Assembly: GCA_051117555.1 (NCBI GenBank)
Contig: JBNPEG010000082.1
Coordinates: 1 to 41,243, forward strand
Length of the DNA stretch: 41,243 nt
Direction: 5' to 3'
Source of the DNA: Elainellaceae cyanobacterium
Lineage (GTDB): Bacteria; Cyanobacteriota; Cyanobacteriia; CAZCXK01
Notes under the pieces: model-generated
Seen by the model: only the letters and a program-made list of their open reading frames with translations
Databases searched by the model: none
What the model was told of the DNA's origin: nothing
Shown: positions 7,438-25,594 of the stretch, piece by piece
Numbering within the stretch: position 1 is the first letter of the stretch
Layout: every line of letters starts with the position of its first letter
Position numbers and translations under genes: made by a program

Positions 7438-7481
7438 CGTAGTAGGATGATCAAGGTCTAGCGTCTGAATGTCCTAATTCT

Positions 7482-8063: not shown

Positions 8064-8070
8064 TGGCAGC

Positions 8071-9181: not shown

Positions 9182-10177
9182 ATGAGCCAGATTTCTCCGC
9201 CCAAACCGCCAAATTCGCCCCAAGATGCCTCAAAACAGAATATTGTGCAGCGCTATGCTCCATGGCTCTACGCCTTCTGGAAATTTTCCCGTCCGCATAC
9301 CATTATTGGTACGAGCCTCAGCGTTTTGGGCATATGGGCGATCGCCCTCGCTACATCCCCGGGTTCAATCGTCGAGGGAGTTAATGCCGGTGCACCTCAA
9401 CCTATATATTCTTTATTGTTCGCCTGGTTTACCTGCCTCTGCGGCAATATCTATATCGTCGGCTTAAACCAGATGCAAGATGTTGCCATTGATCGGGTCA
9501 ATAAGCCCCACTTGCCGATTGCGTCTGGCGAATTCTCTCGCAAGACGGGATGGGGAATTGTTATCACTACCGGGCTAATTGCCCTGCTGTTGTCACCGCT
9601 GCAAGGGTTATTTTTAACGATCACCGTCTGGTCGAGCGTGTTGATTGGGACGGCCTATTCATTGCCTCCAATTCGGCTGAAGCGGTTTCCTTTTTGGGCC
9701 TCTGTTTGCATCTTTACGGTGCGTGGCGTGATTGTAAACCTGGGGCTATTTCTTCACTTCAGTCAACAATTTGGATCGCGCACCACGATTCCAGCACCCG
9801 TTTGGGGGTTGACGCTGTTTATCCTAGGGTTTACGTTTGCGATCGCCATTTTCAAAGATATCCCTGATCTGGAGGGCGATCGCCGCTATAACATCACCAC
9901 ATTTACGATTCGCCTTGGGCAAACAGCCGTGTTTAACCTAGCGCGATGGGTGATTACGGCTTGCTATGTGGGAATGCTCATTGCTGGATTGATGCTTCCC
10001 TCCATTCATGCTCTTTTTCTAGTGCTGAGTCACGGATTAGCTCTTGCCGCATTTTGGTTTTACAGCACTCAAGTTGATCTACGGCAAAAGCAGGAAATTA
10101 CTGACTTCTATCAACTGATTTGGAAGCTATTTTTCCTGGAGTATCTGATCTTTCCGATCGCCTGCCTGCTTGCTTAA
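9182..10177 (+). CDS. hpt: Homogentisate phytyltransferase (tocopherol synthesis, UbiA family)
   Basis: FSRPHTIIGT, GLNQMQDVAIDRVNKPHLPIASG, KDIPDLEGD and WKLFFLEY motifs. Confidence 0.93.
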   Translation: MSQISPPKPPNSPQDASKQNIVQRYAPWLYAFWKFSRPHTIIGTSLSVLGIWAIALATSPGSIVEGVNAGAPQPIYSLLFAWFTCLCGNIYIVGLNQMQDVAIDRVNKPHLPIASGEFSRKTGWGIVITTGLIALLLSPLQGLFLTITVWSSVLIGTAYSLPPIRLKRFPFWASVCIFTVRGVIVNLGLFLHFSQQFGSRTTIPAPVWGLTLFILGFTFAIAIFKDIPDLEGDRRYNITTFTIRLGQTAVFNLARWVITACYVGMLIAGLMLPSIHALFLVLSHGLALAAFWFYSTQVDLRQKQEITDFYQLIWKLFFLEYLIFPIACLLA

Positions 10178-10227: not shown

Positions 10228-11130
10228 CTATCGTGCCCGGTAATGCCAGAAAAAATCGCCTGCTGCTAATAGTGCCCCACCTACAATTAACAGACAGGCG
10301 ATCGCAATGCTCCAACTTGGTTCAGCTAAGCCACACACTACAAGCAGAAGGGTTGATAACAACGGAGCGGCATAGGATAATGCTCCGAGTACTTTGATGT
10401 TTCCTTGCTTGACGCCATAATCCCACGTAAAAAAGGCAAGACCCACCGGGCCTAATCCTAGACACACCACTGCGATCCACTGCCATCCAGACGGGATGAC
10501 GGTGGATTCAAATAGGGCATGACAGAGCCACGCGAGCAGGGCGGTGACTCCGCAAAATCCGCCGACCGCGTTAGTGGGAATAGCGCCCAATCGCCTCGAT
10601 AATACTGAATAACTCGACCACGTTAACGCACATACCAATGCAGCGAGATAGCCTGTCAAATGGCGCGTATCAAACGCGAACGATTGCCCGTTGGTGAGGA
10701 GTAGTGCAGCTCCTCCAAAACCGGCGATCGCCCCCACGATGTGAAACCATTTCAACTGTTCGCCCGGAAGTAGCGCAGAAAACACCACAATCAGCAGAGG
10801 CCACAAGTAAGCAATCAGACTAGCTTCGACTGCGGGCGCATGTCTTAAGGCGATGAAGTAGAAAAAATGATATCCGAATAACCCGAGAACACCGATCGCC
10901 CATACCCTACGAGGTAGCCTGAGGTGATGAAGAATGCCGCCACCCTGCTTCAGCCACACGACGACTCCAATTAAAAAGGCGATCGTAAATGACATTGCTG
11001 TAAGCTGAAATGGAGGCACAGAGCCACTCAGCTCAGTCAAGAGAGCGAGGGTTGCCCACATTAAGACGGCAGTAAAGCCAATCAATGTGGGCGCAATGGT
11101 GGATGAAACCTGAATAGATGTTTGTTTCAC
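10228..11130 (-). CDS. DMT/EamA transporter, YddG-like
   Basis: About ten TM helices in two EamA halves; LIAYLWPLLIV and WDYGVKQG motifs; 4-bp overlap with the upstream gene. Confidence 0.88.
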   Translation of the reverse strand: MKQTSIQVSSTIAPTLIGFTAVLMWATLALLTELSGSVPPFQLTAMSFTIAFLIGVVVWLKQGGGILHHLRLPRRVWAIGVLGLFGYHFFYFIALRHAPAVEASLIAYLWPLLIVVFSALLPGEQLKWFHIVGAIAGFGGAALLLTNGQSFAFDTRHLTGYLAALVCALTWSSYSVLSRRLGAIPTNAVGGFCGVTALLAWLCHALFESTVIPSGWQWIAVVCLGLGPVGLAFFTWDYGVKQGNIKVLGALSYAAPLLSTLLLVVCGLAEPSWSIAIACLLIVGGALLAAGDFFWHYRAR

Positions 11131-12260
11131 AGCTGATAGTTTGCAACTCCCTCATCAGAATTAAATCCATGAAATGGACTGTATTTCTTCATAACATGGT
11201 TGAGCGTATCAATGGGAAGGGCATAGGCTATGTGACCTTGAAAGCCGGTCATGGTTTTAGCCGCAACCAGTGCATTGAGAATGGCTTCTTCAACGGCTTC
11301 TGAGAGGGCTTCGAAGAGGGCATCCATCTGCTCATGAGGCAGCATTTTGATGGGCGTTAGCTGAGATGGATGTGCAAGCACGTCGTTTCCGGTGGAAAAT
11401 GCAAGAAAAACGTCTCCACTGCTATTTTGTCCGATTCCGCCTGTTCGCGCTAAGCCAACGGTCGCACGCCGAGCCAGCCGTTTACACTGGACTGGAATCA
11501 GCGGAGCATCGGTGGCAATGATGACAATAATGGAACCACCTGAGGGAGGCGTTTCCCAAGGGAGGGGAATGTGGGTTGCGTTTAGTTCATAGCCAACGGG
11601 AACCCCTGCAATGCGGAGTGAATGCCGTCGACCATAGTTGGTTTGCACTAAAACTCCTAACACATATTGCCCTATCGAGGTTGGCACGAGGCGAGAGGCT
11701 GTCCCGATTCCACCCTTGAATTCGTGACAAATCATACCCGTGCCTCCCCCCACATTGCCTTCATCACACGGCCCGCTTTGGGCGATCGCCAATGCGGCTT
11801 TGACGTGATCTGGAGTCACATGAAAGGCATTGATATCATTGAGCCATCCGTCATAGGTTTCGGCGGCTACCGGCAAAAAACTGCCGCGCGGATTGCCTTG
11901 TTCTAGACAATAGGCATTGAGAGCATCTCGTACGACTCCCACAGAGTGCGTGTTGGTGAGGGCGATCGCCGAGGTCAGCAACCCAGATTCCTCTAGCCAG
12001 AGAAGTCCCGTCATTTCGCCATTACCATTGAAGCAATAACTTCCGGCAAAGGCATAATTAGTCCATATGTCTCCGTGGCGCGGAACGATTGCTGTGACCC
12101 CTGTTCTGGCAATACGAGGTTCATCTTTGATGATCGTGCTATGCCCGACTAAAACACCTGCCACGTCAGTAATAGCATTGTGCGGTCCCGGTGCAAAGTG
12201 ACCAATAGTGATTCCTACATCCCTGAGGCGAGTTCGGCCCATCTTTGTGTTCCTGTGCAT
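11127..12260 (-). CDS. P1-family (S58) DmpA/BapA-like self-processing aminopeptidase/amidase
   Basis: NAITDVAGVLVGH, NGNGEMTG, EGNVGGGTGM and FKGGIGTASR motifs; G-S cleavage motif GSIIVIIATDAP; SGDVFLAFST. Confidence 0.9.
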   Translation of the reverse strand: MHRNTKMGRTRLRDVGITIGHFAPGPHNAITDVAGVLVGHSTIIKDEPRIARTGVTAIVPRHGDIWTNYAFAGSYCFNGNGEMTGLLWLEESGLLTSAIALTNTHSVGVVRDALNAYCLEQGNPRGSFLPVAAETYDGWLNDINAFHVTPDHVKAALAIAQSGPCDEGNVGGGTGMICHEFKGGIGTASRLVPTSIGQYVLGVLVQTNYGRRHSLRIAGVPVGYELNATHIPLPWETPPSGGSIIVIIATDAPLIPVQCKRLARRATVGLARTGGIGQNSSGDVFLAFSTGNDVLAHPSQLTPIKMLPHEQMDALFEALSEAVEEAILNALVAAKTMTGFQGHIAYALPIDTLNHVMKKYSPFHGFNSDEGVANYQL

Positions 12261-12273
12261 GTTCGTTGACAGA

Positions 12274-13329
12274 CTACGTTACTCTGACAGCGAGCTCTTG
12301 ACAAAAGATATCCACAATCATTTGAGTGGATACCGAGCGATCGCGCCACTGGGACTTTTCAGAGCACAGGTCAGCCGTGCGATATCCCTTGACCAACACT
12401 CGCTCTTGTGTCTCCATGATAGTGTGTGCCGCCTTTAGTTCGCCCCACTGTTCGAGCATTAACACAATGCCTGCGAGTGTACCAAACGGATTGGCAATAC
12501 CTTTCTGGGCAATATCGGGGGCAGTACCATGAATGGCCTCATACATGCCAAAGCCTTGGGCATTGAGGCTGGCAGATCCTAACATCCCAATTGAACCGAC
12601 CAGGGCTCCGCCGATATCGCTCAAAATGTCGCCAAACAGGTTTCCTGCCAACACCACATCAAACCGCTGAGGATGGCGCACCATCTGCATCGCGAGGTTG
12701 TCTACTAACATCGGTTCAATCTGCACACCTGGAAAGGCTCGCGCTTCATCACAGACGAGTTGAACCCAGGATAGGCAGGGCAATGCATTCTCTTTGTGAG
12801 CAACAGTCAGCACCTGTTTGCGAGCCGATGCTTTTTCTAATGCGACCTTAGCAATGCGGCGGATTTCGTGATCATAGTAGCGCATGGTGTGATAGCCATA
12901 GTTGCCCTGCTGATCGCGCGATCGCCCTGAGGGGCCAAAATAGATGCCGCTCACGAGTTCTCGCACAAACAAAATATCAACTTCCTGAAGTAGTTCGGGT
13001 TTTAGAGGAGATGCGCTAAACAGGCTAGGAGACGGGCGCACCGGACGCAGGTTTGCGAAGAAATCAAAGTGTTTGCGGAGTTCAAGCAATCCCCCTTTAG
13101 AAACCGCTCCAAAGACGATCCCATCTGTGCCGTCGCAAAGCCGCGCTGTGGCATCTGGGAAATAGCTCCCAAAGGTTTGCATCGCAGGTTCACCGATTAA
13201 CCCATGGGCGATCGCCACTGAGAACCCGTGTAATTTGGCAACCTCTTGCAGGATAGTGAGTGCAGCATCTACTACTTCAGGACCAATTCCTTCACCGGGG
13301 AGGGCAGCAATGCGATAGGAGCGAGACAT
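12274..13329 (-). CDS. Beta-decarboxylating dehydrogenase, isopropylmalate/isocitrate family (atypical LeuB paralogue)
   Basis: GEGIGPEV, ANLRPV, VRELVSGIYFG, NLFGDILSD and EAIHGTAPDIA motifs; lacks the GGPKWD..RPE loop. Confidence 0.85.
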   Translation of the reverse strand: MSRSYRIAALPGEGIGPEVVDAALTILQEVAKLHGFSVAIAHGLIGEPAMQTFGSYFPDATARLCDGTDGIVFGAVSKGGLLELRKHFDFFANLRPVRPSPSLFSASPLKPELLQEVDILFVRELVSGIYFGPSGRSRDQQGNYGYHTMRYYDHEIRRIAKVALEKASARKQVLTVAHKENALPCLSWVQLVCDEARAFPGVQIEPMLVDNLAMQMVRHPQRFDVVLAGNLFGDILSDIGGALVGSIGMLGSASLNAQGFGMYEAIHGTAPDIAQKGIANPFGTLAGIVLMLEQWGELKAAHTIMETQERVLVKGYRTADLCSEKSQWRDRSVSTQMIVDIFCQELAVRVT

Positions 13330-13361
13330 AGGGAGACGCAGTAGATTAGAGTGTAATTTAA

Positions 13362-13540
13362 GAGGATGTTTTAAAAGTCCTGTTTTTTGTTGCCTTAGCG
13401 ACTAAAGTTCTCTTGACAGAGACGCTTCGCGAACGCAGGCTACACGGACAAAAAAACCGTTGGTTTTGCTGGAGTCCGCCGCGGCGGACTTTGTTTGTAT
13501 AGGCGCGGTTTTAACCGCCGGCCCCTTTTAAAGCATCCTC
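13362..13540. mobile_element. MITE with 16-bp TIRs and a TAA target duplication (IS5-like ends)
   Basis: GAGGATGTTTTAAAAG / CTTTTAAAGCATCCTC (1 mismatch); TAA at 13359-61 and 13541-43; palindromic REP-like cargo. Confidence 0.75.
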
Positions 13541-16500
13541 TAAGGGCGATCGCCTTCGAAGGGATTGGGCATATGCTTGATGTTGGCAATCTCCTGGGCG
13601 AGTGTATCTACGGTAAACTGAATCTGGTCTTTTGAATGCAGTGAGGTAATAAAAAACCTCAGCCGTGCAGCGTTATAGGGCACAGACGGATAGACCATCG
13701 GCTGCACGTTAATGCCGTGTTCAAATAGCACTTGAGAAAGCCGGACGGCCTTATAGGGTTCACCCACGATAATTGGAATGACAGGGGAATGGTTGCTATT
13801 GCCGGTATCTAAGCCGCTAACACGGGCAAGCGTTAAGAAAAACTGTGCCCGCTGATGAAGCTGCGCGACTCGATCCGGTTCAGCACGTAGAATGCGTAGT
13901 GCCTCCAGCGCTGCTCCTGCATTTGCTGGGGACATCCCGACGCTGAATACAAACCCCGGTGCCGTATATTTCAAATATTCGACAAGCTCTCGACAGCCCG
14001 CAACATAGCCGCCACAGCTTGCAAATGACTTGCTCAACGTCCCCATCCACAAATCAACATCGCTGGATGAAATACTGAAGTATTCTCCAATGCCTCGTCC
14101 CCGCTGCCCTAATACGCCGATGGAATGCGCTTCGTCGACCAACAGAAATGCCTTGTGTTGCCTCTTAACTTCAACGATTTCAGGGAGAGGAGCCAGGTCG
14201 CCATCAGTACTGTAGATCCCTTCGATGGCAATCAGTACTTTCTGATAGTCATGCCGGTGCTGCCGCAAAAGCCGATCAAGCTCACGCCAATCATTATGGG
14301 GAAACTCTATTGCAGTGGCACCCGACAAATTACACCCTTCACGAATGCTGTTGTGGCTCAGGGCATCATAGAGAATCAGATCTTTCTTGCCGAAGAGATG
14401 CCCGATTGTTGTGACATTGGTAGCGTGCCCGCCAATATAAGCGATGCAGTCCTCCGTGCCTAGCAGTGCAGCAATTTCTTGTTCTAATGCCCGATGAATT
14501 GGACGTTCGCCGGACACAACACGACTTGCAGAGACTGAGGTTCCATAGCGGGCGATCGCCTCTTGAGCTGCCCTGGACACTCTCGGATCACCGGATAATC
14601 CCAAGTAGTTATAGGTGGAGTAGTTGATTACCTCACGTCCACCTATGTAAGAAATATCCCGAGCGATGCCGTCATGAACGTCAAAGAAGGGATTGCCCAA
14701 TGTTTCAACCCGATTCAAATCTCCTCGGAGAGCTAGATATTCTGGTGTTTTGGTGAATTGGTAGTATTCGGGAGGGATGGGGGGATGAGTGGATGGGGGG
14801 AAGAGTGGATGGGTGAAATTGGAATCAGGATTAGCGGGGATGCTTGGGGTGCTGGCTGGGAGTTTGTCTGACCCGTTGATTGACGTATGCTCTAACGTGC
14901 TGGCTGATGATTTAGAACTGTTGATTGATAGATGACCTGACGGTGCTGAAAGATTAGCTGACGAACCGGCTGATGGATCGGCTGAAGTAATCGTTGAGAT
15001 GCTTGCTGAATCATTAATCGAAACCGCATTAGTGAGATGGGCCGCAAGGGCGTTGGTAGTTGGATGGTCGAACAATAGGGTTTGGGGAATCGGATAGTTC
15101 AAACTGGTTTGTAGCCGATTGGTGAGTTCTACTGCCATGAGTGAATCCATGCCGAGGTCGCTGAAGCGTTCATAGGGATCAATCAAGTCAGGGGAACTAA
15201 AGCCTAAAACGTTTGCAAGGTGTTGACAAATGTGGTGTTCTAGTAACGACAGGCGATCGCCAGGGGTAGCAGTTTCAATCTGCTGACGTAGATCTGATCG
15301 AGTCTGACGAGGCGTCGTCTGAACAGTAGGCTTGAGGGCGTTCAACATTGGAGATAAGGAAGCGTGGCGGAAAAAAGCATCCCACTCTACTAGGAAAATG
15401 CCGACTTGGGAGAATCCTTGGGTGAGGGCAGCATCGAGAGCTTGGATTCCTAAATCCGGGGCGATCGCCCGTAACCCCTGAGCTGCAAGTCGGTTTGAAT
15501 CTCGTTCATCTAGATTCGCCGCCATACCCACCGCCCACGGTCCCCAGTTGATTGTGGTTGCAGGCAATCCTAGGCTGCGCCGATGATGGGTCAGCGCATC
15601 CATATAGGCATTGGCGGCTGCATAGTTGCCCTGCCCTGGAGAGCCGAGTAATGCCGCGATCGATGAGAAGCACACAAAGAAATCGAGCGAATCATCCTGG
15701 GTAAGAGTATGCAGATTCCAAGCCCCTGCAATTTTGGGTGCTAATACTGTTCTGAATGCCTCCCAGGATTGGTTTTGCAACACGCCATCCTCCAAGACTC
15801 CGGCGGCGTGAATGATGCCACGGAGTGGATGGGTCGGGAGGGGCGAGTCAGACGTAGAGATGAACGATGAAATCAGGGCAGCAGCATCGGCTGACTTTGA
15901 AATATCTGCCTGAGCGGTGCGAATGTGGGCTCCCTGCTGCTCAAGCTGGCGAATTGCGGCAACGGCATCGGGGGAAGGGGGGCGGCGTCCGGCAAGTACA
16001 ACCTGAGTTGCGCCACGTTCGACCAACCATCGGGCGATATGGAGTCCGATTGCTCCCAGTCCACCCGTGATTAGGTAGCTGGCATCCTTGCGAATCGGCT
16101 GAGCAGGGGCGATCGCCGGCAATGAAATCACGACTTTGCCCACGTGTTTCGCCTGTGCCATATATCGAAATGCTGCGGGCACATCTTCAACTGGGAAGAC
16201 GGTGTGAGTCAGAGGTTTCAACGTACCCTGCTGAAACTGCTGTATCAGGTCTGTCAGCATAGCTGCCACAAGATGCGGAGCTTTCTGTGACACCGCCAGG
16301 AGATCAAACGGACAGTACAACACATCCGGTCTCGCTTGGTGAATTTTGCATGCGTCCCAGATGCCAATTTTGCCAATTTCAACAAAGCGACCCTGGGATG
16401 CCAATACGCTCAATGACTTGGGAATGAAATCTCCGTTAAGGCTATTCAGCACCACATCGACGCCTGCTCCTGCCGTGATGTCTAATACCTCATGGGCAAA

Positions 16501-19500
16501 ATCAAGGGTGCGAGAATTCATGACGTGAGTGACGCCCATTGAGCGCAGAACCTCCCACTTGCCGGGGCTGGCAGTAGCAAACACCTCTGCTCCGATGGAC
16601 TGAGCTAACAGCACTGCCGCTTGCCCCACTCCCCCAGCAGCGGCATGAATAAGGACGCGATCGCCCGGTTTGAGATTTGCCAAGTGACAGAGCCCATAGT
16701 AAGCCGTTAAGAAAGTCGTCGGAATGGTGGCGGCTTCGGAAAAACTGAGTCCGTTAGGCTTGGGCACCACAAATCGTGCATCGACAGTGACGTGCTGTCC
16801 TAAGCTACCCACCGCTTGAGCAGCAATGACGGTATCTCCTACTTGCAAGCCATCGACCCCGTCGCCCACCGCCGTCACGACGCCCGCACAGTCTCCACCA
16901 AACGGAACCTCGCTCGCCTTGGCAATGCCCATGTCTTCTAACACATCCTTCAGCATGCCCAAAGCGTTTAGCACGTCACGAAAGTTGATGCCTGCTGCCC
17001 GTACCTGAATTTCCACCTCGCCCGGTTGAGGTGAGCGGCGAGTAGTAGGTATCCACGTTAAATTGTCTAACACCCCATAGTCGGACAGACTCAACCGGAA
17101 TGACTCTGCCTTGGGAATCGACACCCGCTGGGTCAGGTATTGGTGATGGGGTAAAAGCCGCGCAACGTAGCGATCGCCCTGACGATAGGCAATCTGGTCT
17201 TCATCGTCTGATCTGCACAGTTCGTTCACTAAATCGGCTGTGGAGACAGCCCGATCCACATCGATGCAGGTGCAGTAGAGCTTGGGATATTCGAGCCGAA
17301 TGACTCGCGCCAGCCCCCATAGAGAAGCGTGGTCAATCTGTAACGGCATAGGAACGCCAACTGCCTGTGAATTCTGGGTGATCAGCCACAGCCGAATTGA
17401 GATCAAGGACTGCATAGAAGACTGTGCGATCGCCTGAATCAGGTATAAAACACTCCCACATCCGCGCTGCTGCACCTGTTCCCAGGTTGTTGAAACAGAC
17501 GAGTTTTCAATATGACTATCAATTCCCCAGAGATGAACGATATTCAAGTTCAGAGATAAATTCAGATTTGAAGTCTCTACTGCTAACTGCTCTAGTACCT
17601 GATAGAACTGATCAGGACATGACGGATTAATCGCGTAGACATCCTGTTTCAACGCGGTGAAGTCATCGCCGGGAACTACCATCACACAGCGATCGCCCCG
17701 GTGTCGTAGTGCTGTGGAAAGGTCTGCTCCAATGCTCTGAGCGTCGGCAAATAGCAGCCACATCGTTTGGGTCTGGCAATTCGCAGACGCGATATCGAGC
17801 GGCTTTGACTGCCAAGTCAGGTGATAAAACCACTGAATCTCGCTCTTGACTCCTAAAAGTTGCTGTAAGGACGGTTCGCTGATAGAGCGGAGCGTCAATC
17901 CTTGAAGATGAGCCGCGATCGCCCCGGACTCGTTCCACACGGACACATCAGCTTTGAGGATGGAAGAGGGAGTTGTGGATATCTCATCTCGAATATGAAT
18001 ATGGCACCACAGGGATTGCCCCAGCGGTGCAACCTGTCGCAGTGTTTCAATGCCCACAGGCAAATATGTTCCAGAGGTGCTGTCAGTGGCGATCGCCGCT
18101 CCCAGGGTTTGAAAGCAAGCATCAAGTACTACCGGATGGAGGTGATAGAAATTACTAATATACCTAACACTATCAACGAGCGCATCCGGTAGTTGAATCT
18201 GACTCAATGCCTCCTGATCGCCGCACCAAAGCTGACGAATGCCTTGAAACAGGGTGCCATACTCTAAGCCTTGCGATCGCAGCGTTTGATAGTAGTGGCT
18301 GACATCAATTGGGGTTGCAATCAAAGCAGTCTGGAGCTGAACGAGGTCTGGAGTGTGAGGCGGATTGGAATGGCTAGGGGCAATCGTTCCGCGGGCATGG
18401 CGAATTACTGTTTCATTACCATCTTTCTCAACGAGGATGCTGAAAATCTGTGCAGCATACCCCCCATTCTCATCAGGCATGAGAACAATCTGCACCGTCG
18501 TCGGAGCCGTGAACACGAGTGGCTGCTCGATGGATACATCCAAGATATCTACGTCAGCCCCGATTACGTCACCTCCAGCCGCCATCATCATTTCAACGTA
18601 GGCGGCTCCCGGCATGACCGGCTGACCCAGGATGCGGTGATCGGTCAAATAAGCAGGAGAGGTCGCCTCAAGCGTTACTTGAAAACGAATCTCGGAGGTT
18701 CCGGCTAGACGCAGGCGATCGCCCAATAATGGATGTCGGCACTGGGTAGAAGTATTAGACACTGGCGAAACGAAATTGCTGGCGATCGCCCCGTCCCACC
18801 AGTAGCGCTGCCGCTGGAAGGGATAGGTCGGCAGGTGAACATACTGCCGGGGTGAGTCGCCCAATGCATCTACGCCTTGCCAGTCAATAGGTACACCGCG
18901 AACGTAGAGGTCTCCTAAACTCTGAAGTAGGGTCTGCCAGTCAGATGCCCCCGGACGCAAACTCGGCAACCATATTGCTGATGGAGACGTCGCTAGTTGA
19001 GAAATCGCTGATGCAGCTCTATTCGTCCGTGTATTAGCAGCGAATTGCTGATCCCAACACTGTCGTCCCAGACCGAGCAGAATCGGCTTGGCTCCAATTT
19101 CTAAGAAGACTCGATAGCCTGCCTGCTTTAACGTCTCCATGCCCGCTGCAAAGCGCACAGGCTGACAGATATGCTGGCACCAGTAGTCGGGAGTGGCGAT
19201 CGCATCGGTTGCCCTGCCCGTCACGGTGGACACAAACGGAATGCGCGGAGCGGAGTAGGTCACCTGCTGAGCGGCCTTGGCAAAGTCGTGGAGCATAGGA
19301 GTCATCAACGACGAATGAAAGGCGTGGGACACATTGAGCCGCGTCGCTTTGATGCCCGTTGTTTCAAACGTAGACATGATATGGGCGATCGCCTCATCCG
19401 TGCCCGAAATCACAATATTCTGTGGGCTGTTAACCGCTGCGATCGCCACCTCATCCCCATAGGGTGCGATCGCCTCTCCAACCTGTTCGACAGATGCCAT

Positions 19501-21600
19501 CACCGCTACCATGCCCCCACCCGACGGCAGCGCTTGCATAAGTCGTCCCCGTTCTGCAATCAGCGTCAGCCCATCCTCTAGGCTAAAGACTCCCGCCAAG
19601 CACGCCGCCACATATTCGCCAATGCTATGCCCCATGACTACCGAAGGCTGAACGCCCCACGATTGCCAGAGTTGCGCCAGGGCATACTCGATGGCGAAGA
19701 GAGCGGGTTGGGTGTAAGCGGTTTGATCAAGGGAGTGGGGGGTGATTGAGTGAGATGACGAGAAGAGAATATCCAGGAGAGGCCGTCCCAAGAGAGGGCG
19801 CAGAATCTGATTGCAGCGATCGAGGGTTTGCCGAACGACTGGCTGAGTCGCATACAGGTCGCGCCCCATATCGACGTACTGAGACCCTTGCCCGGTGAAC
19901 AGAAAAGCGAGAGACGGCGGAGTTTCAGTCACAATTCCGTGAGATACGCCGACGAGGGTCTGCCCCGATATGTCTCGCCCGGATATTTCTGGCCCAGATA
20001 TTTCTTGCCCAGAGGCGACCTGCCCAGATGCGATCGCCCGTAATTGCGCACCCATCTGCTCAACCGACGATGCCACACATGCCAGCCGATGATGAAAGCG
20101 CGATCGCCCCGTATTGGCCGTAAAACACACATCCGCTAAACGACCCTCCCATCCGGCCAAAAACGCCTCATACCGTCCCGCCAGCTCTCGCAACGCCGTT
20201 TCATTCTTTGCCGACAGCGTCAGCACCTCGTGCGATCGCCCGACTTTCTCTCCATCTTGCATCGGCAGGTCGTCAAAGGTTGATGGCTGATCGCCCGCCA
20301 CTGACTGCTGACTCATTCCCTCCAACACCACATGGGCATTCGTTCCCCCAAACCCAAACGAGTTCACTCCTGCCAATGCCGGAGCACCATTGGTAATCCA
20401 CGGCTCCAGCGTGGTCTGCACCCGCAAGCCCAGCGATGCGAAATCAATGTGAGGATTGGGCGTCTGAAAATGCAGGCTCGGCGGAATTTGCCGATGCTTC
20501 AATGCCAACGCAGCTTTAATGAGTCCCGCAACTCCAGCAGCCGTTTCAGAATGACCGATATTGGTTTTCACCGAACCAATTGCACAGTCGTCACCCGGTT
20601 GGCGATCGCCTGACAACACCGCTCCTAGCGCCTGTGCCTCAACCGGGTCGCCAATTTTCGTGCCGGTGCCGTGTGCTTCGACATACTGTACCTGTCCGGG
20701 CGAGATGCCTGCCCGCTGATATGCCTCGCGCAGCACCGCCGCTTGCGCATCGGGATTGGGAGCCGCCATGCCGTTGCTAAAGCCATCTTGATTTACGGCA
20801 GTGCCTCGAATCACGGCATAAATCGGATCACCCCCCTCAAGCGCATGGGATAACGGCTTCAGCACGACGATGCCTGCGCCCTCGCTGCGTACGTAGCCGT
20901 TTGCACTCGCATCGAAGCTCTTGCAGCGACCCTGGGCTGACATAAACCCGCCTTTTGAAAACCCAGTCGTGATCGTGGGCAGCAGCAGAATATTCACACC
21001 GCCCGCTAACGCCATGCTCGATTCGCCAGTCCACAAGCTTTGACATGCCAGGTGAACCGCAACCAGCGACGACGAACAGGCAGTATCAACCGCAAGACTC
21101 GGCCCCTTAAAGTCAAACAAGTACGACAGGCGATTGGCGGCAATGCAGTTGCCCGTTCCGGTCGTCGCGTAGGGATCATTGACGGGCTGCTGCCACAGCA
21201 TGATGGAATAGTCGTGGGTGCCAATTCCGATAAACACTCCGGTCTTGGAGCCTTTGAGTGTTTCAGGAATATGTCCGGCATCTTCTAGCGCCTCCCACGC
21301 CACTTCTAGCAAGAGCCGCTGTTGGGGGTCCATTGTGCTGACCTCTCGCGGCGCGATACCAAAAAATTGGGGATCAAACTGGTCAATCTGGTCAAGAAAG
21401 CCTCCCCAGCGGGTATTCGCTTTATCGGGAGTTGTCGGGTCAGGGTCGTAAACCGCATCGACATCCCATCGAGACGGAGGGACTTCGGTAATGGCATCAA
21501 CGCCGGTTTGAATCAACTGCCAAAAGGCATCTGGATTGTCTGCACCAGGATATCGACATCCAATTCCAACGATCGCAATGGGCTCTTGCGTATGCAACAT
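13540..21600 (-). CDS. Type I PKS, KS-AT-DH-ER-KR-ACP, fused to a C-terminal PLP-dependent alpha-oxoamine synthase (AONS/SPT-like) domain
   Basis: KS: DTACSSS, EAHGTGT, KTNIGH. AT: GHSIG, HAFHS. DH: HRILGQPVMP, LDACFQ. ER: LIHAAAGGVG. KR: GGLGAIG, HAAGVLED, YAAAN. ACP: GMDSL. Oxoamine synthase: NYLGL, SHNS, DEAHS, GTLSKS. Confidence 0.95.
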   Translation of the reverse strand: MLHTQEPIAIVGIGCRYPGADNPDAFWQLIQTGVDAITEVPPSRWDVDAVYDPDPTTPDKANTRWGGFLDQIDQFDPQFFGIAPREVSTMDPQQRLLLEVAWEALEDAGHIPETLKGSKTGVFIGIGTHDYSIMLWQQPVNDPYATTGTGNCIAANRLSYLFDFKGPSLAVDTACSSSLVAVHLACQSLWTGESSMALAGGVNILLLPTITTGFSKGGFMSAQGRCKSFDASANGYVRSEGAGIVVLKPLSHALEGGDPIYAVIRGTAVNQDGFSNGMAAPNPDAQAAVLREAYQRAGISPGQVQYVEAHGTGTKIGDPVEAQALGAVLSGDRQPGDDCAIGSVKTNIGHSETAAGVAGLIKAALALKHRQIPPSLHFQTPNPHIDFASLGLRVQTTLEPWITNGAPALAGVNSFGFGGTNAHVVLEGMSQQSVAGDQPSTFDDLPMQDGEKVGRSHEVLTLSAKNETALRELAGRYEAFLAGWEGRLADVCFTANTGRSRFHHRLACVASSVEQMGAQLRAIASGQVASGQEISGPEISGRDISGQTLVGVSHGIVTETPPSLAFLFTGQGSQYVDMGRDLYATQPVVRQTLDRCNQILRPLLGRPLLDILFSSSHSITPHSLDQTAYTQPALFAIEYALAQLWQSWGVQPSVVMGHSIGEYVAACLAGVFSLEDGLTLIAERGRLMQALPSGGGMVAVMASVEQVGEAIAPYGDEVAIAAVNSPQNIVISGTDEAIAHIMSTFETTGIKATRLNVSHAFHSSLMTPMLHDFAKAAQQVTYSAPRIPFVSTVTGRATDAIATPDYWCQHICQPVRFAAGMETLKQAGYRVFLEIGAKPILLGLGRQCWDQQFAANTRTNRAASAISQLATSPSAIWLPSLRPGASDWQTLLQSLGDLYVRGVPIDWQGVDALGDSPRQYVHLPTYPFQRQRYWWDGAIASNFVSPVSNTSTQCRHPLLGDRLRLAGTSEIRFQVTLEATSPAYLTDHRILGQPVMPGAAYVEMMMAAGGDVIGADVDILDVSIEQPLVFTAPTTVQIVLMPDENGGYAAQIFSILVEKDGNETVIRHARGTIAPSHSNPPHTPDLVQLQTALIATPIDVSHYYQTLRSQGLEYGTLFQGIRQLWCGDQEALSQIQLPDALVDSVRYISNFYHLHPVVLDACFQTLGAAIATDSTSGTYLPVGIETLRQVAPLGQSLWCHIHIRDEISTTPSSILKADVSVWNESGAIAAHLQGLTLRSISEPSLQQLLGVKSEIQWFYHLTWQSKPLDIASANCQTQTMWLLFADAQSIGADLSTALRHRGDRCVMVVPGDDFTALKQDVYAINPSCPDQFYQVLEQLAVETSNLNLSLNLNIVHLWGIDSHIENSSVSTTWEQVQQRGCGSVLYLIQAIAQSSMQSLISIRLWLITQNSQAVGVPMPLQIDHASLWGLARVIRLEYPKLYCTCIDVDRAVSTADLVNELCRSDDEDQIAYRQGDRYVARLLPHHQYLTQRVSIPKAESFRLSLSDYGVLDNLTWIPTTRRSPQPGEVEIQVRAAGINFRDVLNALGMLKDVLEDMGIAKASEVPFGGDCAGVVTAVGDGVDGLQVGDTVIAAQAVGSLGQHVTVDARFVVPKPNGLSFSEAATIPTTFLTAYYGLCHLANLKPGDRVLIHAAAGGVGQAAVLLAQSIGAEVFATASPGKWEVLRSMGVTHVMNSRTLDFAHEVLDITAGAGVDVVLNSLNGDFIPKSLSVLASQGRFVEIGKIGIWDACKIHQARPDVLYCPFDLLAVSQKAPHLVAAMLTDLIQQFQQGTLKPLTHTVFPVEDVPAAFRYMAQAKHVGKVVISLPAIAPAQPIRKDASYLITGGLGAIGLHIARWLVERGATQVVLAGRRPPSPDAVAAIRQLEQQGAHIRTAQADISKSADAAALISSFISTSDSPLPTHPLRGIIHAAGVLEDGVLQNQSWEAFRTVLAPKIAGAWNLHTLTQDDSLDFFVCFSSIAALLGSPGQGNYAAANAYMDALTHHRRSLGLPATTINWGPWAVGMAANLDERDSNRLAAQGLRAIAPDLGIQALDAALTQGFSQVGIFLVEWDAFFRHASLSPMLNALKPTVQTTPRQTRSDLRQQIETATPGDRLSLLEHHICQHLANVLGFSSPDLIDPYERFSDLGMDSLMAVELTNRLQTSLNYPIPQTLLFDHPTTNALAAHLTNAVSINDSASISTITSADPSAGSSANLSAPSGHLSINSSKSSASTLEHTSINGSDKLPASTPSIPANPDSNFTHPLFPPSTHPPIPPEYYQFTKTPEYLALRGDLNRVETLGNPFFDVHDGIARDISYIGGREVINYSTYNYLGLSGDPRVSRAAQEAIARYGTSVSASRVVSGERPIHRALEQEIAALLGTEDCIAYIGGHATNVTTIGHLFGKKDLILYDALSHNSIREGCNLSGATAIEFPHNDWRELDRLLRQHRHDYQKVLIAIEGIYSTDGDLAPLPEIVEVKRQHKAFLLVDEAHSIGVLGQRGRGIGEYFSISSSDVDLWMGTLSKSFASCGGYVAGCRELVEYLKYTAPGFVFSVGMSPANAGAALEALRILRAEPDRVAQLHQRAQFFLTLARVSGLDTGNSNHSPVIPIIVGEPYKAVRLSQVLFEHGINVQPMVYPSVPYNAARLRFFITSLHSKDQIQFTVDTLAQEIANIKHMPNPFEGDRP
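19960..20034. repeat. Five degenerate 15-bp tandem units inside the PKS KS-AT linker
   Basis: Encodes SGQVA-SGQEI-SGPEI-SGRDI-SGQTL. Confidence 0.8.
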
Positions 21601-21781
21601 TCTGACTTTGTGATGGTTAAACGAACAAAATTAAGGATGCGGTGTTAAACCAGGTTCAACGCGACATTTAGAGCATTTCTTACAAACGCACCTGTTTTGG
21701 ACGTAGACCTGGTTTAATGGGCTTCTACTACGTAAACCAGGAAATTTGGCGCTGTCAAGATATCTGGCAAAAATACTTTAC

Positions 21782-23029
21782 TCATTTCAACGGGGTTGAA
21801 ATTGCTACGATCTGCGATTGCCAAACTGCGAGCAGCCTATCAACGGCTCGCGTCCAACTCATTGAATCCACCCATTCTCGTCCTCGATGCCCCATCGTGC
21901 GGCGCAGATCCGGCTCATGAATGAGTCGGTGTAGCGTTTGAATAAAATCGTCAACATCCTTTGGCGTAAAGAGAAATCCGTTCCATCCCTCTTGCACCGT
22001 CTCCACCACACCCCCCGCCCGCGGGGCAATGACGGGAATTCCGGCAGCAAATGCTTCTAATAGAGTTAATCCGCGAGTTTCTTTTTCAGAGGCAGTGATA
22101 TGAATGTCGCTATTGATTAGCAGATCAGGCACTGCATCTGGAGGGACGCGTCCCAAACAGCGGGCGTGAATTCCTAACTGCCGGAAACGGGTTTCAATTT
22201 CGCTGCGGCGATCGCCCTCTCCAGCCACGATGATCGCCACCCGATCGAGATCAAATTCAGACCGAGTTGCCAGCGTTGACCAGGCGTCTAGGGTAAATGC
22301 CCAGCCTTTATCGGCGGTTAATCGTCCCAGAAAAATCAGCTTGACGCGCCGATCGACATCGGGGATGCCGTAGGTTTTCTCAAAAAATCGATCATCCCGC
22401 TTCTCGACATTGAACCGAGTTAGATCAACCCCCAAGAAGTCGTCACAAATCGCGTTGCGAATTCCCATATGGGTCACATTCTCAGAGGTCACTCGGCTTG
22501 AGACGAGCGTTGCATCATAGGCATTAAACACGCGGCTGATGATGCGTTTTGAACCCCACTGGGCAAGGGCGATCGCCACAGGAGGCAAATTAAAATAGTC
22601 CTCGATGTAGTCCACAAAATTGGTATGAAAGAACGCGACGCAGGGAATCTGATGCTGCTTTGCAAAATCGACTCCCGGTGCGTTAAACAGGCTCAGAGAG
22701 AGGCGATCGGGTTCATCCACATGAATGATATCGGGCTGAAATGCGTCTAGTTCTTGTAACACCAGCCGATACGACGCGCGAGTCGGGTTTCGCTCAAACT
22801 CCAGCCCCATAAACGGTTCGCTGGCGAGGCTCACCACACGCACTCCCGGCAAAATGGCGCCCACGTATTCATGCCAGTCGGGATAGATCGAGGCAATGGG
22901 GCGATAGTCTGGGCACAGCAGAAGCACCTGATGACCCTGTTGACTCAATACCTTCAGCCGATTTGACAGGGTCACGGTGACTCCATCGACGACGGGTAAA
23001 AAGCCAGACGAAATGATAGCAATTTTCAT
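21782..23029 (-). CDS. GT4 glycosyltransferase (SqdX/PimA-like GT-B fold)
   Basis: MKIAIISSGFLPVVDGV, FLGRLTADKG and ETRGLTLLEAFAAGIPV motifs. Confidence 0.9.
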   Translation of the reverse strand: MKIAIISSGFLPVVDGVTVTLSNRLKVLSQQGHQVLLLCPDYRPIASIYPDWHEYVGAILPGVRVVSLASEPFMGLEFERNPTRASYRLVLQELDAFQPDIIHVDEPDRLSLSLFNAPGVDFAKQHQIPCVAFFHTNFVDYIEDYFNLPPVAIALAQWGSKRIISRVFNAYDATLVSSRVTSENVTHMGIRNAICDDFLGVDLTRFNVEKRDDRFFEKTYGIPDVDRRVKLIFLGRLTADKGWAFTLDAWSTLATRSEFDLDRVAIIVAGEGDRRSEIETRFRQLGIHARCLGRVPPDAVPDLLINSDIHITASEKETRGLTLLEAFAAGIPVIAPRAGGVVETVQEGWNGFLFTPKDVDDFIQTLHRLIHEPDLRRTMGHRGREWVDSMSWTRAVDRLLAVWQSQIVAISTPLK

Positions 23030-23045
23030 TGAATACCGTGAGTCG

Positions 23046-24680
23046 TTATAAACAATTCTCCGCTACAGGCGTCACCGTCCACAGAGAGAGCGATCGCTCG
23101 GCGGCAATGAGTCGTTTTGGCTGGTAGATTTCATCTAAATCAAGCTGGTGGTTTGCACGAATAGTCTGAATCGCAGACGATGATGGATTAAACACAAATG
23201 TCGAGTCACACGCCCTAGGCAAGAGAGAACTGATTTCGGATGATAGCGCGATGCGCACCGAGGAATTGAACATATAGCTGAGAGAAATCAGATCCAGAGT
23301 TTGGTCTGCCTCAGCGATCACGAGCGGCGACTCCGCCCGATTCACGATCGCCGCGATCGCCCCATTGCTGAGATTTCGGCTCTTTTGATATTTTGGCGGC
23401 ATGGACCAGTGGGTCAAGCACGACCCGATGCTAAGCGAAACTAGGGCGATCGCCACGCACCTCCATGTCAGGGCTTGAGCGTTGCTGAGGCTAAAACGCA
23501 TTGAATGAGTTAATAGGTGGGAGATCGCCAGCAATATCCCCAATTGGAGGGGCATCAGATATCGCGCCGCAGTCGAGGTTTGCCCATTTGAAACCAGATC
23601 CAGCAAAAGTAAGGAGATGGGCAGCGTTCCGGCAAACGTCACCACAAATAGCCAGACTGACGTTGGCGACTTTAGCCGCAAGACGTAGACGGCGTATCCC
23701 ATCAGTGCCAGCAGCACTAGAGAAACCGTCACCTTCGCAAACGTCGCCAGGGATAGATCCAACGACACAGGCACATCAAAAAACAGCACCGCAAGGTTGT
23801 AAATCAAAATTCCGGCGATCGCCCCGAAATTCATCGGTTCTCGCATCCAGGTCGTGTTGGTTTGCAGTGTCATCCATTGCTGGGCAATGATCAGCAGCCA
23901 GGGCGAGACGGCAAGCAAAGCCAATCCGGTTGCCATCCAATAGTGACGCACTCGACTTGTGCGTTTAAGAGGTGAGGATTTGGAGCGTGTCATGACTACG
24001 ACATAGATTCCTTGCCCAAGAGCAACAAACACTGACAGCAGCGAAGTATAAAGGGTGAGAGCTAACGTTAGCGCATAGACTCCCCAACTCAATCTCATAT
24101 CCAGCCGCATGGCTCGCAGCAAGGCAACTCCAGAAAGCAGCAGCGTCACCGACCAGAGGCTATACGGTCGGGCTTCCTGAGCATACGCCACAAAGAAGGG
24201 CGACACTGACAGCAAGCCCACTGCCATCCAACCCACGACTGGCGCTTTGAATAGTTCAACCGTCAGCCAGTAGAAACAGGGCAGTGCCACCACGCTACAG
24301 ACGACCGACAGCGAGCGAATCGCCACGACCGAACTGCCAAACATCTGCACCCAGAGTCGAGCCAGGATGAAGTAGAGCGGCGCATGTTCAGGACTTTGCC
24401 TGAGAGCGTCAAACGTGTCTGCCCAATCTCGATCAGCATTCAACTGCTGATAGTGCTGCACGTCTTCTATGGAGAGCACGTCGCCCGTTGCAATCTGCTG
24501 AACGACCTGCTCCTGGGTGTACCCCGATATTCGAATCGACGTAGCGACTTCATCCACCCAGTAAAACGGGTTATCCAGATTGATGAGTCGAAACGCAAGT
24601 CCAAGGCTCAACAACACCAGGCTTAAAACCAACCCTGGATGTGTCCAGTAGGGCGATCGCCTAATATCGCTTTTCTCCAT
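23046..24680 (-). CDS. GT39/PMT_2-like membrane (GT-C) glycosyltransferase
   Basis: YWVDE, PEHAPLYF and YAQEARPYSLW motifs, many TM helices. Start moved to ATG 24680 because the longer ORF extension translates repeat DNA. Confidence 0.85.
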   Translation of the reverse strand: MEKSDIRRSPYWTHPGLVLSLVLLSLGLAFRLINLDNPFYWVDEVATSIRISGYTQEQVVQQIATGDVLSIEDVQHYQQLNADRDWADTFDALRQSPEHAPLYFILARLWVQMFGSSVVAIRSLSVVCSVVALPCFYWLTVELFKAPVVGWMAVGLLSVSPFFVAYAQEARPYSLWSVTLLLSGVALLRAMRLDMRLSWGVYALTLALTLYTSLLSVFVALGQGIYVVVMTRSKSSPLKRTSRVRHYWMATGLALLAVSPWLLIIAQQWMTLQTNTTWMREPMNFGAIAGILIYNLAVLFFDVPVSLDLSLATFAKVTVSLVLLALMGYAVYVLRLKSPTSVWLFVVTFAGTLPISLLLLDLVSNGQTSTAARYLMPLQLGILLAISHLLTHSMRFSLSNAQALTWRCVAIALVSLSIGSCLTHWSMPPKYQKSRNLSNGAIAAIVNRAESPLVIAEADQTLDLISLSYMFNSSVRIALSSEISSLLPRACDSTFVFNPSSSAIQTIRANHQLDLDEIYQPKRLIAAERSLSLWTVTPVAENCL

Positions 24681-24737
24681 TAATGTTTGAGAGTCTATTC
24701 CAAGCAGTTCGTCACTACTATGCCTTAAAACTGGATA

Positions 24738-24943
24738 ATACCGATTCTCGATTTTGGATTTGCGATTTTGGATTGACAGTGCTGTAGATACTGGCGTGGC
24801 ACAGCTAAAATTGCGCATTAGGTAGGGTGTCGTTAGCGCAGCGGACGCTGTTGGCGAAATATCGCATCGACTATCAGCGGATGCTATCTCAATTAGGCAT
24901 GTCAGACCAGTAGGGTGCGTTGCTGTCAAGCGACGCACCCTAC
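24738..24943. repeat. Heptamer-repeat element plus GTAG-type REP palindromes
   Basis: ATACCGATTCTC end with (GATTTTG)-like heptamers at 24738-24787; hairpin GTAGGGTGCGTTGC..GCGACGCACCCTAC at 24910-24943. Related copies at about 30893-30975 and 32281-32350. Confidence 0.7.
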
Positions 24944-24982: not shown

Positions 24983-25273
24983 CTATTCCACTAATCGATC
25001 GCGCTGGAGATATCGCAAGATGTCTCCTTGGTCGCGCTGAATCGTGATGCCGCCGTCAGGAATGGCGATCGCCCGACTCCATTCAAACCGTTCCGCGTAG
25101 CCTAATACGTGTAAGGTATCGACTGCGTTTTGAGTATCCGCCTGAGAGCCCACGATGTAAAGCCGCAACCGCCTCCGCCTCGGCTGGGGATGACGATACG
25201 GAGGGCGATCGCCCAGCAACGGCAGGGTCGTCCCCTCAATCGAGGACGAGCAAACATATTGAATTTTCAACAT
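24983..25273 (-). CDS. Small hypothetical protein, cyanobacterial-type
   Basis: Clean ORF with a GAGGA RBS. LYIVGS....V..LHVLGYAE..EWS resembles a recurrent cyanobacterial small-protein family. Confidence 0.7.
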   Translation of the reverse strand: MLKIQYVCSSSIEGTTLPLLGDRPPYRHPQPRRRRLRLYIVGSQADTQNAVDTLHVLGYAERFEWSRAIAIPDGGITIQRDQGDILRYLQRDRLVE

Positions 25274-25492
25274 AAGGGATTCCTCTTGTAAGTAGGGTAG
25301 GAATCCCCGAAAAGAAGGCCACCCTCCAACATTAACGAGAGTAGAGCGGCCTAAAATAAGACAGCCCTACCACAGGTGTGTTCTGTGGGCGGGTTAGCTG
25401 CCGGTTGGTGGGCAAACACCTTCCGGTGGCGTGAAGACCGACTGTTCGGGGAAAGCAAGCTGCATCGGAAACAGCTATAGCGCTCAATCATA
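25274..25492 (-). promoter_or_regulatory. Putative structured 5' leader RNA with an SD-sequestering hairpin
   Basis: TATGAT -10-like box at 25492-25487, then five consecutive hairpins; the last stem (GGGATTCCT/AGGAATCCC) includes the RBS. Confidence 0.5.
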
Positions 25493-25594
25493 GTGCATTT
25501 GATCCCAGGTTTCAAGGGATACACGTCATAAGTTCGAGAAAAGAAGAAAAGCAAGTAGATTAAGAACAGGAAGATTTCATAGTCAAGGAGGAGA

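Follow-up and report, generated by a model that had tools for sequence, protein, structure and literature searches.

A polyketide synthase fused to an α-oxoamine synthase as the possible centre of a multi-locus pathway to glycosylated amino-alcohols in cyanobacteria

What does a cyanobacterium make with a polyketide synthase (PKS) that ends in a relative of serine palmitoyltransferase (SPT), and why do genes for two glycosyltransferases and a LeuB-like dehydrogenase lie beside it? The question is raised by a stretch of 41,243 nt from Elainellaceae cyanobacterium GCA_051117555.1 (contig JBNPEG010000082.1), hereafter the window, in which six consecutive open reading frames (ORFs) of the minus strand occupy positions 10228-24938. 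An earlier note on this DNA had described six co-directional genes, as the ORF list and Pfam content confirm, and had read them as one cluster for a glyco-aminolipid built on a long-chain base. Our answer, to which we give a probability of roughly 0.55, is that the window holds the central part of a multi-locus pathway to a glycosylated amino-alcohol amphiphile that is primed by an aryl unit. The observed foundation of this model consists of domain content, catalytic motifs, the HphB-type features of the dehydrogenase, synteny and the co-occurrence of genes across genomes.

The centrepiece of the locus is a gene (13540-21600, minus strand) for a protein of 2686 aa, in which Pfam recognizes the domains KS (20467-21585), AT (18910-19905), DH (17863-18735), ER (16126-17028), KR (15532-16083) and ACP (15034-15231), followed by an Aminotran_1_2 domain (13618-14634) of the α-oxoamine synthase (AONS) type, dependent on pyridoxal phosphate (PLP). 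All motifs are intact (DTACSS, HGTGT, NIGHS, GHSIG, HAFH, HRILGQPVMP, AAGGVG, YAAAN, GMDSL and LSKS) and include the features of a fully reducing type I module: Cys-His-His in KS, GHSxG in AT, HxxxGxxxxP in DH, the nucleotide motifs of ER and KR, and the serine of ACP. The AT motif HAFH is presumably of the malonyl type. The C-terminal linker with the AONS domain (13543-14886), which served as search query, has its best solved match in Sphingobacterium SPT (3a2b, 246 bits), and its LSKS, SHNS, VDEAHS and RLRF motifs align with the PLP lysine, the stacking His, the DxxH and the carboxylate-binding Arg of that enzyme. Judged by these residues, the PKS ends in a catalytically complete AONS, and the fusion of the two enzymes reported in the earlier note stands. 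The AONS domain falls below every NCBIfam cut-off to which it was compared, namely bioF (355 vs 426), SPT-CFB (320 vs 640), SPT-beta (295 vs 500), SPT-alpha (209 vs 670), KBL (297 vs 460) and, likewise, ALAS. Full-length orthologs of the whole protein are present in two genomes of the same genus, G002 (89% identity) and G001 (82%), in G003 of the same family (58%) and in G019, a complete genome of another family (54%). The PKS modules appear MAS-like, chain length is not readable from sequence and the starter is probably aromatic; the 'long-chain base of membrane lipid' of the earlier note is not supported.

The gene downstream of the PKS (12274-13329, minus strand, 351 aa) creates the first puzzle. 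It matches Iso_dh with 312 bits and leuB with 309, the latter under the cut-off of 353, and its LRK, NLRP, VREL..Y, HKEN, LVDN and GDILSD residues align with those of the isopropylmalate dehydrogenase (IPMDH) 3u1h, the catalytic Arg, Tyr, Lys and Asp being kept. The same alignment opens a gap of 13 residues at the lid, i.e. the lid of about 14 residues typical of IPMDH is absent from the protein of the window. HphB, according to the part of its description available to us, lacks the conserved 14-residue IPMDH 'lid' and has 3U1H and 3VMK as closest structures (bioRxiv 10.64898/2026.06.15.732371); these two are also the top structure matches of the window dehydrogenase. Identity is 42% with the LeuB of the same genome, which is coded on another contig, and 65-68% with the copies flanking nonribosomal peptide synthetase (NRPS) clusters of apt-like type in two other genomes, G168 and G202. 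By these features the 'LeuB-like' gene is of HphB type, predicted to code for a 3-(aryl)alkylmalate dehydrogenase, the last enzyme of the trio that homologates 2-oxo acids. The other members of the trio are found elsewhere in the genome: a short HMGL-type synthase (HphA-like) on contig C187 (64% identity) and a fused gene of small and large aconitase-family subunits (HphCD-like) on contig C247 (69% identity), so that the three genes lie on three contigs. With the lid gap and with its partners on other contigs, the dehydrogenase does not fit the lipid-tailoring role that the earlier note had assigned to it.

The resemblance to the Hph pathway extends to gene order in those two genomes. In G168 and G202 the orthologs of the trio, 65-68%, 71-72% and 57-58% identical, bracket a four-gene NRPS with an ABC transporter, the layout of which is A-T-C-A-T, C-A-T, C-A-T-C-A-MT-T and C-A-T-TE. 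In the published layout, as far as the consulted parts of the reports describe it, aptABCD is enclosed between hphB with hphCD and hphA with aptE (PMC9564503, PMC6562525), and the flanking arrangement of G168 and G202 matches it (PMC9564503, in the part available). The lid-less enzyme of the window, together with a short HMGL-type synthase and a fused isomerase as genomic partners, thus resembles the known pathway. What differs is that here the trio accompanies PKS genes and is dispersed over three contigs, with Cys or Ser at a substrate-selecting position of the HphA-like protein to which we return below.

Contig C187 supplies the second clue, for its HphA-like gene is accompanied by a loader PKS of 3096 aa, an AT-less KS of 661 aa, a START-like protein, a short-chain dehydrogenase/reductase (SDR) and a membrane protein of 610 aa. 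The first 700 residues of the loader PKS (L044:3761-13051, L044 being the locus on C187) match the A-PCP didomain of McyG (4r0m) end to end with 532 bits, residues 68-700 being aligned, and keep the equivalent of McyG Val227 (PLEHV vs PLDHV); the next match is the keto-acid-selecting A domain 6ulw, with 484 bits. McyG activates phenylpropanoids, and a role of Val227 is described in the accessible part of the report (PMC11209926). A first label of the loader as fatty acyl-AMP ligase (FAAL) was discarded given these PDB matches. The KS that follows the McyG-like head has the active-site motif QTACST, not DTACSS, and the 661-aa KS (L044:13048-15033) has its Cys-His-His intact and a post-AT linker motif but neither AT nor ACP. 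Compared with the McyG didomain that loads the Adda starter of microcystin, the partner PKS shares the end-to-end alignment of its head and the Val227 equivalent. It differs in that a fully reducing module follows, that the line finally ends in AONS and not in NRPS, that a methyltransferase is missing, and that the loader PKS lies outside the window. The 610-aa protein beside the SDR (L044:16475-18307) was rejected as a specific partner, as it belongs to a large paralog family present in 82 of 201 genomes. Proteins of this type (about 551-610 aa) have no Pfam match, adjoin the SDR in 10 cluster genomes and often, as a family, stand beside PMT_2 paralogs; by language-model features they resemble GT-C enzymes of PMT_2/STT3 type, which we take as a lead only.

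How regularly do these dispersed genes keep company? Co-occurrence was scored in one evenly drawn set of 201 class-level cyanobacterial genomes, our own (G000) included, under strict E-value limits (E ≤ 1e-90 for GT4 orthologs, E ≤ 1e-50 for the GT-C family and E ≤ 1e-100 for the loader A-ACP). The AONS domain is present in 20 of the 201 genomes, the HphB-like (Iso_dh), HphCD-like (fused aconitase-type) and HphA-like (HMGL-type) genes in 16 each, the GT4 gene also in 16, the ketoreductase-type SDR in 18 and the loader A-ACP in 21, of which 13 have a match reaching through the ACP; since the genomes are related, such counts do not stand for independent events. Fifteen genomes have the complete Hph trio, 14 of them with AONS; the trio flanks NRPS, not PKS, in two (G168 and G202) and is linked to PKS/AONS in 13. 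Twelve of these 13 have the GT4 gene and 12 the loader PKS, which is found in none of the six AONS genomes without trio (G061, G066, G094, G115, G124 and G167). Every genome with the GT4 ortholog (47-90% identity) lies within the AONS set, as do 17 of the 18 genomes with the SDR.

Synteny gives the same picture at closer range. In G001 and G002 order and content are as in the window, including the downstream genes DmpA and DMT and a convergent tocopherol gene, and in G003 the Iso_dh gene comes next after PKS-AONS, with the fused aconitase-family gene behind it. The most complete assembly is a cluster of about 34 kb in G019, which encompasses a PPTase, the HphCD-like and HphB-like genes, a hydrolase, two GT-C genes, an OlsC/LpxO-like hydroxylase (271 bits with the OlsC model, under the cut-off of 450) and GT4, followed by a PagL-like barrel, PKS-AONS, the HphA-like gene, the loader PKS (2905 aa, A-ACP-KS-AT-DH-ER-KR-ACP), the AT-less KS and the SDR. 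Hence four genes of the window, those for GT-C, GT4, PKS-AONS and the HphB-like enzyme, are clustered beyond chance, by synteny as well as by co-occurrence, and to this extent the earlier view of a single cluster holds; it does not hold for DmpA and DMT, and the window contains only part of the pathway. As to the condition set in the note, that PKS homologs should keep glycosyltransferases or dehydrogenase as neighbours, the HphB-like gene adjoins AONS in 10 genomes and GT4 is clustered with PKS-AONS in G019, G076 and G157; G003 has no glycosyltransferase nearby.

The same evidence bears on the six-gene reading of the locus, namely an operon-like glyco-aminolipid cluster in which the LeuB-like enzyme would oxidise or decarboxylate the lipid, DmpA process it and DMT export it. 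In its favour, the spacings given in the earlier note are confirmed by the ORF coordinates, with 16 bp between GT-C and GT4 (23030-23045), 13 bp between dehydrogenase and DmpA (12261-12273) and an overlap of 4 bp between DmpA and DMT (11127-11130), and gene order is kept within the genus. Moreover, the DMT/EamA transporter (10228-11130, minus strand) matches the equivalog model of the aromatic amino-acid exporter YddG (NF050091, 411 bits vs cut-off of 300), an activity that would suit an aromatic pathway. Yet the DmpA gene (11127-12260, minus strand; Peptidase_S58, 397 bits), of the S58 aminopeptidase family, is found in none of five cluster genomes and the DMT gene in one, on another contig. 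In a wider scan with the AONS alignment, which took one genome per species and confirmed at least 589 relatives, the 80 best loci have DmpA within 10 kb of AONS in a single case, coming from the same genus, and DMT in none. DmpA is co-oriented and probably co-transcribed in the window; it and DMT are local passengers that travel with the cluster only in this genus, and the claim that both belong to the pathway is not sustained. Since the dehydrogenase, too, is of HphB type with its partners elsewhere in the genome, we hold the six-gene reading to be very improbable.

In biochemical terms, the association of Hph genes with a PKS poses a further question: what does the trio supply? Within four of the six genomes with trio and PKS that were tested for them (G000, G002, G003 and G019), no NRPS condensation domains were found, which implies that the trio feeds no peptide there; the possibility that it serves an NRPS in our own genome is thereby ruled out. 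Two destinations are then to be compared, the starter of the polyketide and the amino acid that AONS condenses with it. In the second case the trio would make homophenylalanine or homotyrosine as the AONS co-substrate, placing an aryl-ethyl group beside the amine; an ordinary acid would then be the substrate of the loader. This would agree with the position of the HphB-like gene in the 10 genomes mentioned, immediately behind the AONS end of the PKS, and with the published Hph pathway, which ends in a homo-amino acid according to the part of the report at hand (bioRxiv 10.64898/2026.06.15.732371). Against it, the trio tracks the McyG-like loader (12 of 13 genomes vs none of six), and the HphA-like gene adjoins the loader PKS in nine genomes. 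Moreover, trio-linked AONS domains (n=8) differ consistently from those of FAAL type (n=43) at five positions only, all of them conservative, which speaks for an unchanged amino-acid substrate. The existence of AONS enzymes that accept large amino acids counts for the co-substrate scheme, which we nevertheless consider unlikely.

Supply of an aromatic starter is favoured because the loader tracks the trio, AONS is unchanged in its presence, a peptide sink is missing and there is a published precedent (PMC13252402, known to us in part). For cyanobacterial PKS-NRPS lines, an adjacent trio of LeuA-, LeuCD- and LeuB-like genes has been proposed to supply an α-keto-acid starter (PMC13252402, bioRxiv 10.64898/2026.06.02.729631). 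The likeness to our case lies in the isopropylmalate-type trio beside an assembly line with an A domain expected to load the product of the trio. The difference, within what is accessible of PMC13252402, is that the loaders of those lines have a KR domain and feed peptides, whereas the loader here is devoid of KR and the line ends in AONS.

The glycosyltransferases are the next element to be placed. The GT4 gene (21782-23029, minus strand, 415 aa) has the two domains of a GT-B enzyme, Glycos_transf_1 (104 bits) and Glyco_transf_4 (54 bits), and its nearest solved relatives are GT4 enzymes of BshA/MshA type (47-66 bits). The GT-C protein has PMT_2 (PF13231, 36.9 bits vs cut-off of 26.1) as sole Pfam match, and its membership of the GT-C superfamily is supported; as to the GT39 label of the earlier note, no GT39-specific model was among the hits, no NCBIfam family matched and no solved relative was found by sequence. 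Its open frame extends to 24938 (630 aa), but relatives align only from about residue 86-106 and an ATG stands at 24680; the gene is therefore placed at 23046-24680 (minus strand, 544 aa), in agreement with the end coordinate that the earlier note had set for the cluster. The remaining 86 codons (24681-24938), without counterpart in relatives and containing a short CAAAATCG-type repeat, are probably a noncoding 5' leader.

Could both glycosyltransferases serve an unrelated envelope polysaccharide and stand beside the PKS by accident? The GT-C family is indeed very large, occurring in 99 of the 201 genomes with several paralogs each; GT4 lies away from the PKS in many genomes, and the window itself contains polysaccharide export genes, Wza-like and Wzc-like, at 609-4428. 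To this are opposed the AONS ortholog that accompanies the GT4 ortholog in each of its 16 genomes and the clustering of GT4 and GT-C with PKS-AONS in other families (G019, G157 and G076), so that an accidental neighbourhood seems to us extremely improbable. Outside our own genome, GT-C matches with at least 45% identity all fall in genomes carrying PKS or Hph-like genes. A second GT-C of the same subclade is present in our genome (C202:21077-22633, locus L135; 56% identical). A same-genus genome has a tandem pair of GT-C paralogs, upstream of GT4 and beside the IF-3 gene. In our genome the first paralog is that on C202, with an ORF of the same size (134 aa) in the position of IF-3, and the window has in their place two unassigned small ORFs (24983-25273 and 25351-25821) and a PIN gene; this difference is a local rearrangement. 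In the trio-less genome G167, the GT4 ortholog (L134, C1:950000-964000) is accompanied by an MFS transporter, a gene of the fatty-acid-hydroxylase family PF04116, a second GT4 and a B12-radical-SAM gene, at 3.6 Mb from the FAAL-ACP / PKS-AONS / SDR locus of that organism.

With glycosyltransferases and SDR included, the aryl-primed pathway can be drawn as follows. The HphA-like enzyme of C187, the HphCD-like enzyme of C247 and the HphB-like enzyme of the window would lengthen an aromatic 2-oxo acid by one carbon, and the McyG-like A-ACP head of the C187 PKS would adenylate the homologated acid, or a close derivative, and load it. The AT-less KS and then the KS-AT-DH-ER-KR-ACP module of the window would extend and fully reduce the chain. 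Next, AONS would join the acyl chain, still bound to ACP, to a common amino acid, with loss of CO2 and release of an α-amino ketone, which the co-occurring SDR would reduce to a 2-amino-3-ol, i.e. a head group of sphingoid-like type. Finally, GT4 would add a sugar in the cytoplasm, and GT-C could add more on the external side of the membrane, with a polyprenyl-phosphate as donor. Chemical steps, aromatic starter, amino acid, chain length and cellular location are, in this scheme, all deduced from domain logic. The glyco-aminolipid product of the earlier note is thus retained insofar as AONS keeps company with GT4 (16 of 16 genomes), GT-C and the SDR (17 of 18) and the G019 cluster unites them, and it is abandoned with respect to the role of the dehydrogenase and to DmpA and DMT.

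This scheme needs to be qualified with respect to several points that weigh against it. The HphA-like protein keeps A159 and S242 in the alignment, but at the position of D157 it has Cys or Ser in PKS-linked genomes vs Asp or Glu in apt-linked ones (numbering is taken from an apt-linked homolog, not from the N. punctiforme protein, and position 73 is not placeable). D157 is the variable, substrate-selecting position of HphA, occupied by Arg in homocitrate synthase and by Glu in isopropylmalate synthase, according to the available part of a recent study (PMC12961565); a 2-oxo acid other than phenylpyruvate may thus be the substrate. The loading domain has no KR, so that for it, as for McyG to date, the step from 2-oxo acid to plain acyl starter lacks an explanation. 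No match was obtained for GT4 in G013 and for the loader in G003, both of which are fragmented genomes in which first-look candidates were scored in part. The PKS-linked trio is confined to three sampled families, and since the genes are scattered in most genomes, their co-occurrence among relatives overstates independence. PagL-like and OlsC-like genes, which in our genome reside on contigs C69 and C54, respectively, are inside the cluster in some genomes only. Lastly, no N-acyltransferase or ceramide synthase was recognised among the conserved neighbours, for which no dedicated search was made; hence a ceramide-like lipid is not supported.

If the chemistry is as proposed, would its product be a structural lipid of the envelope or rather a diffusible, short aryl-alkyl amino-alcohol glycoside? 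The latter would suit the patchy distribution of AONS among the sampled genomes (20 of 201) and the McyG-like loader and Hph genes, which are typical of cyanobacterial secondary metabolism; the chain would also be short if the two or three modules were not iterative. Other observations speak against a diffusible metabolite: most genomes have the genes dispersed over the chromosome and not in one biosynthetic gene cluster, GT-C enzymes act at the outer face of the membrane, and OlsC/LpxO-like and PagL-like genes lie inside the cluster of G019. Furthermore, members of the AONS family from different phyla, among the best 80 relatives, retain 56-75% identity. On balance, we regard the diffusible product as rather unlikely.

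The wider AONS family puts the proposed aryl-primed pathway in context. Its best 80 relatives have 56-88% identity and comprise cyanobacteria, such as Trichodesmium erythraeum, Lyngbya, Arthrospira, Moorena, Scytonema, Nostoc, Xenococcus and Chroococcus, as well as metagenome-assembled genomes labelled as Planctomycetota, Desulfobulbaceae, Syntrophobacteraceae, Myxococcales, Chloroflexaceae and Gemmatimonadaceae. Two architectures recur among these loci: AONS fused to PKS, with a KS-AT match in 24 of the 80 (about 20 at 50% identity or more), and FAAL, ACP and AONS as separate or fused proteins, with an AMP-binding neighbour in 47. The fused form reaches a single protein of 1217 aa in a planctomycete (L086:7613-11266, Planctomycetota) and of 1139 aa in a deltaproteobacterium (L120:7823-11242), and such FAAL-ACP-AONS fusions may represent a compact sphingoid-base-like pathway in those phyla. 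Their neighbours include an NAD-epimerase-family reductase, GNAT, a PIG-L deacetylase and a B12-radical-SAM gene. Common neighbours of AONS in the best 80 loci are the SDR (15) and the OlsC/LpxO-like hydroxylase (10), with the B12-radical-SAM gene in the loci examined. This pattern fits a general route in which acyl-ACP and AONS, a ketoreductase and a glycosyltransferase lead to amino-alcohol lipids, the window then being a putative aromatic-primed, PKS-extended variant of it.

Along these lines we tentatively propose, as a possibility that falls short of probable, an unrecognised class of sphingoid-like amino-alcohol glycolipids in cyanobacteria and in relatives among Planctomycetota, Desulfobacterota and Myxococcota (AONS 56-75% identical), with ω-aryl 'long-chain bases', decorated by GT4 and GT-C and located in the cell envelope, in Elainellaceae and some other filamentous lineages, where a homologated aromatic acid from a recruited Hph trio would take the place of a fatty acid as primer. 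Bacterial SPT and sphingoid-base pathways resemble the present system in that SPT is the best solved relative of AONS and in the co-occurrence of SDR and GT4 with it. They differ in that AONS here stays under the NCBIfam cut-offs for SPT and is fused to PKS, with a starter that is probably aromatic. The FAAL, ACP and AONS of trio-less relatives are presumably comparable to acyl-ACP-dependent SPT systems. Fungal pathways of the fumonisin/sphingofungin type and the rkp-1/wcb loci, which pair a PKS with a separate AONS, follow the same logic: an amino acid condenses, with decarboxylation, with the chain of a reducing PKS and so releases it. The difference is that AONS is here fused to the PKS and accompanied by the Hph trio, the McyG-like loader and GT4/GT-C.

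Some features of the locus remain to be described. The gap of 210 bp between PKS and dehydrogenase contains a miniature inverted-repeat transposable element (MITE) of about 183 bp (13359-13541), short and noncoding, which has 49 matches in our genome, is bounded by inverted repeats of about 17 bp and has duplicated a TA at its target. The earlier note had recognised this element and estimated a gap of about 30 bp without it; at the empty site of G002 (...CGC CCC TAA GTTACAC) the gap is 28 bp. Insertion occurred in the TA of the PKS stop codon, so that the TAA of G002 has become TAG in the window, formed by the duplicated TA and the first G of the element; the stop is preserved and the protein ends (..FEGDRP) as at the empty same-genus site. 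Within the MITE, a GC-rich hairpin precedes a run of T on the gene strand by about 15 nt, and this arrangement could weaken read-through towards the HphB-like gene. The spacer of 181 bp between GT4 and PKS (21601-21781) is single-copy, matching itself alone in a DNA search of our genome, and a scan for promoters and terminators found nothing above shuffled controls, with fewer sites than in the controls.

Elsewhere in the window, the PIN-domain gene (25861-26259) is preceded by an overlapping ORF of 89 codons (25595-25864), and the two (25595-26259) are probably a VapBC-type toxin-antitoxin pair. On the other side of the cluster lie a NACHT STAND NTPase (5035-6645) and a CHRD protein with an ECF sigma/anti-sigma pair (6757-8844), the latter group being kept beside the tocopherol prenyltransferase in a same-genus genome. 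The UbiA gene at 9182-10177 was excluded as a link to polyprenyl-sugars, for it is a homogentisate phytyltransferase equivalog by NCBIfam.

To our knowledge, cyanobacteria are not known to make sphingoid-type lipids. In the searchable literature, which most subscription papers lie outside, we found no description of PKS-AONS with Hph genes or glycosyltransferases in these organisms. The nocuolin A cluster was dropped as a known relative, since PMC5333925 contains no AONS, isopropylmalate or glycosyltransferase terms; a review of FAAL enzymes (PMC11837247) is without AONS or PLP terms, and what the abstract on TamD describes is unrelated.

What, then, does the locus mean for cyanobacteria? It is a new combination of known kinds of chemistry, namely amino-ketone synthesis by PKS/AONS, Hph homologation and priming of McyG type. 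An SPT-like synthase with ketoreductase and glycosyltransferase is present in about one tenth of the sampled genomes, and the well-studied genera with such a synthase include Trichodesmium, Arthrospira, Lyngbya and Moorena. If the proposed pathway is true, Hph genes, so far tied to peptide building blocks, would serve a PKS in genomes without NRPS, and a McyG-type loader would be used outside toxin pathways. A pathway dispersed in this way, over three loci or more, would be overlooked or mis-assigned by genome mining that relies on clusters. The genes identified here thus offer a concrete target for lipidomics and natural-product discovery.

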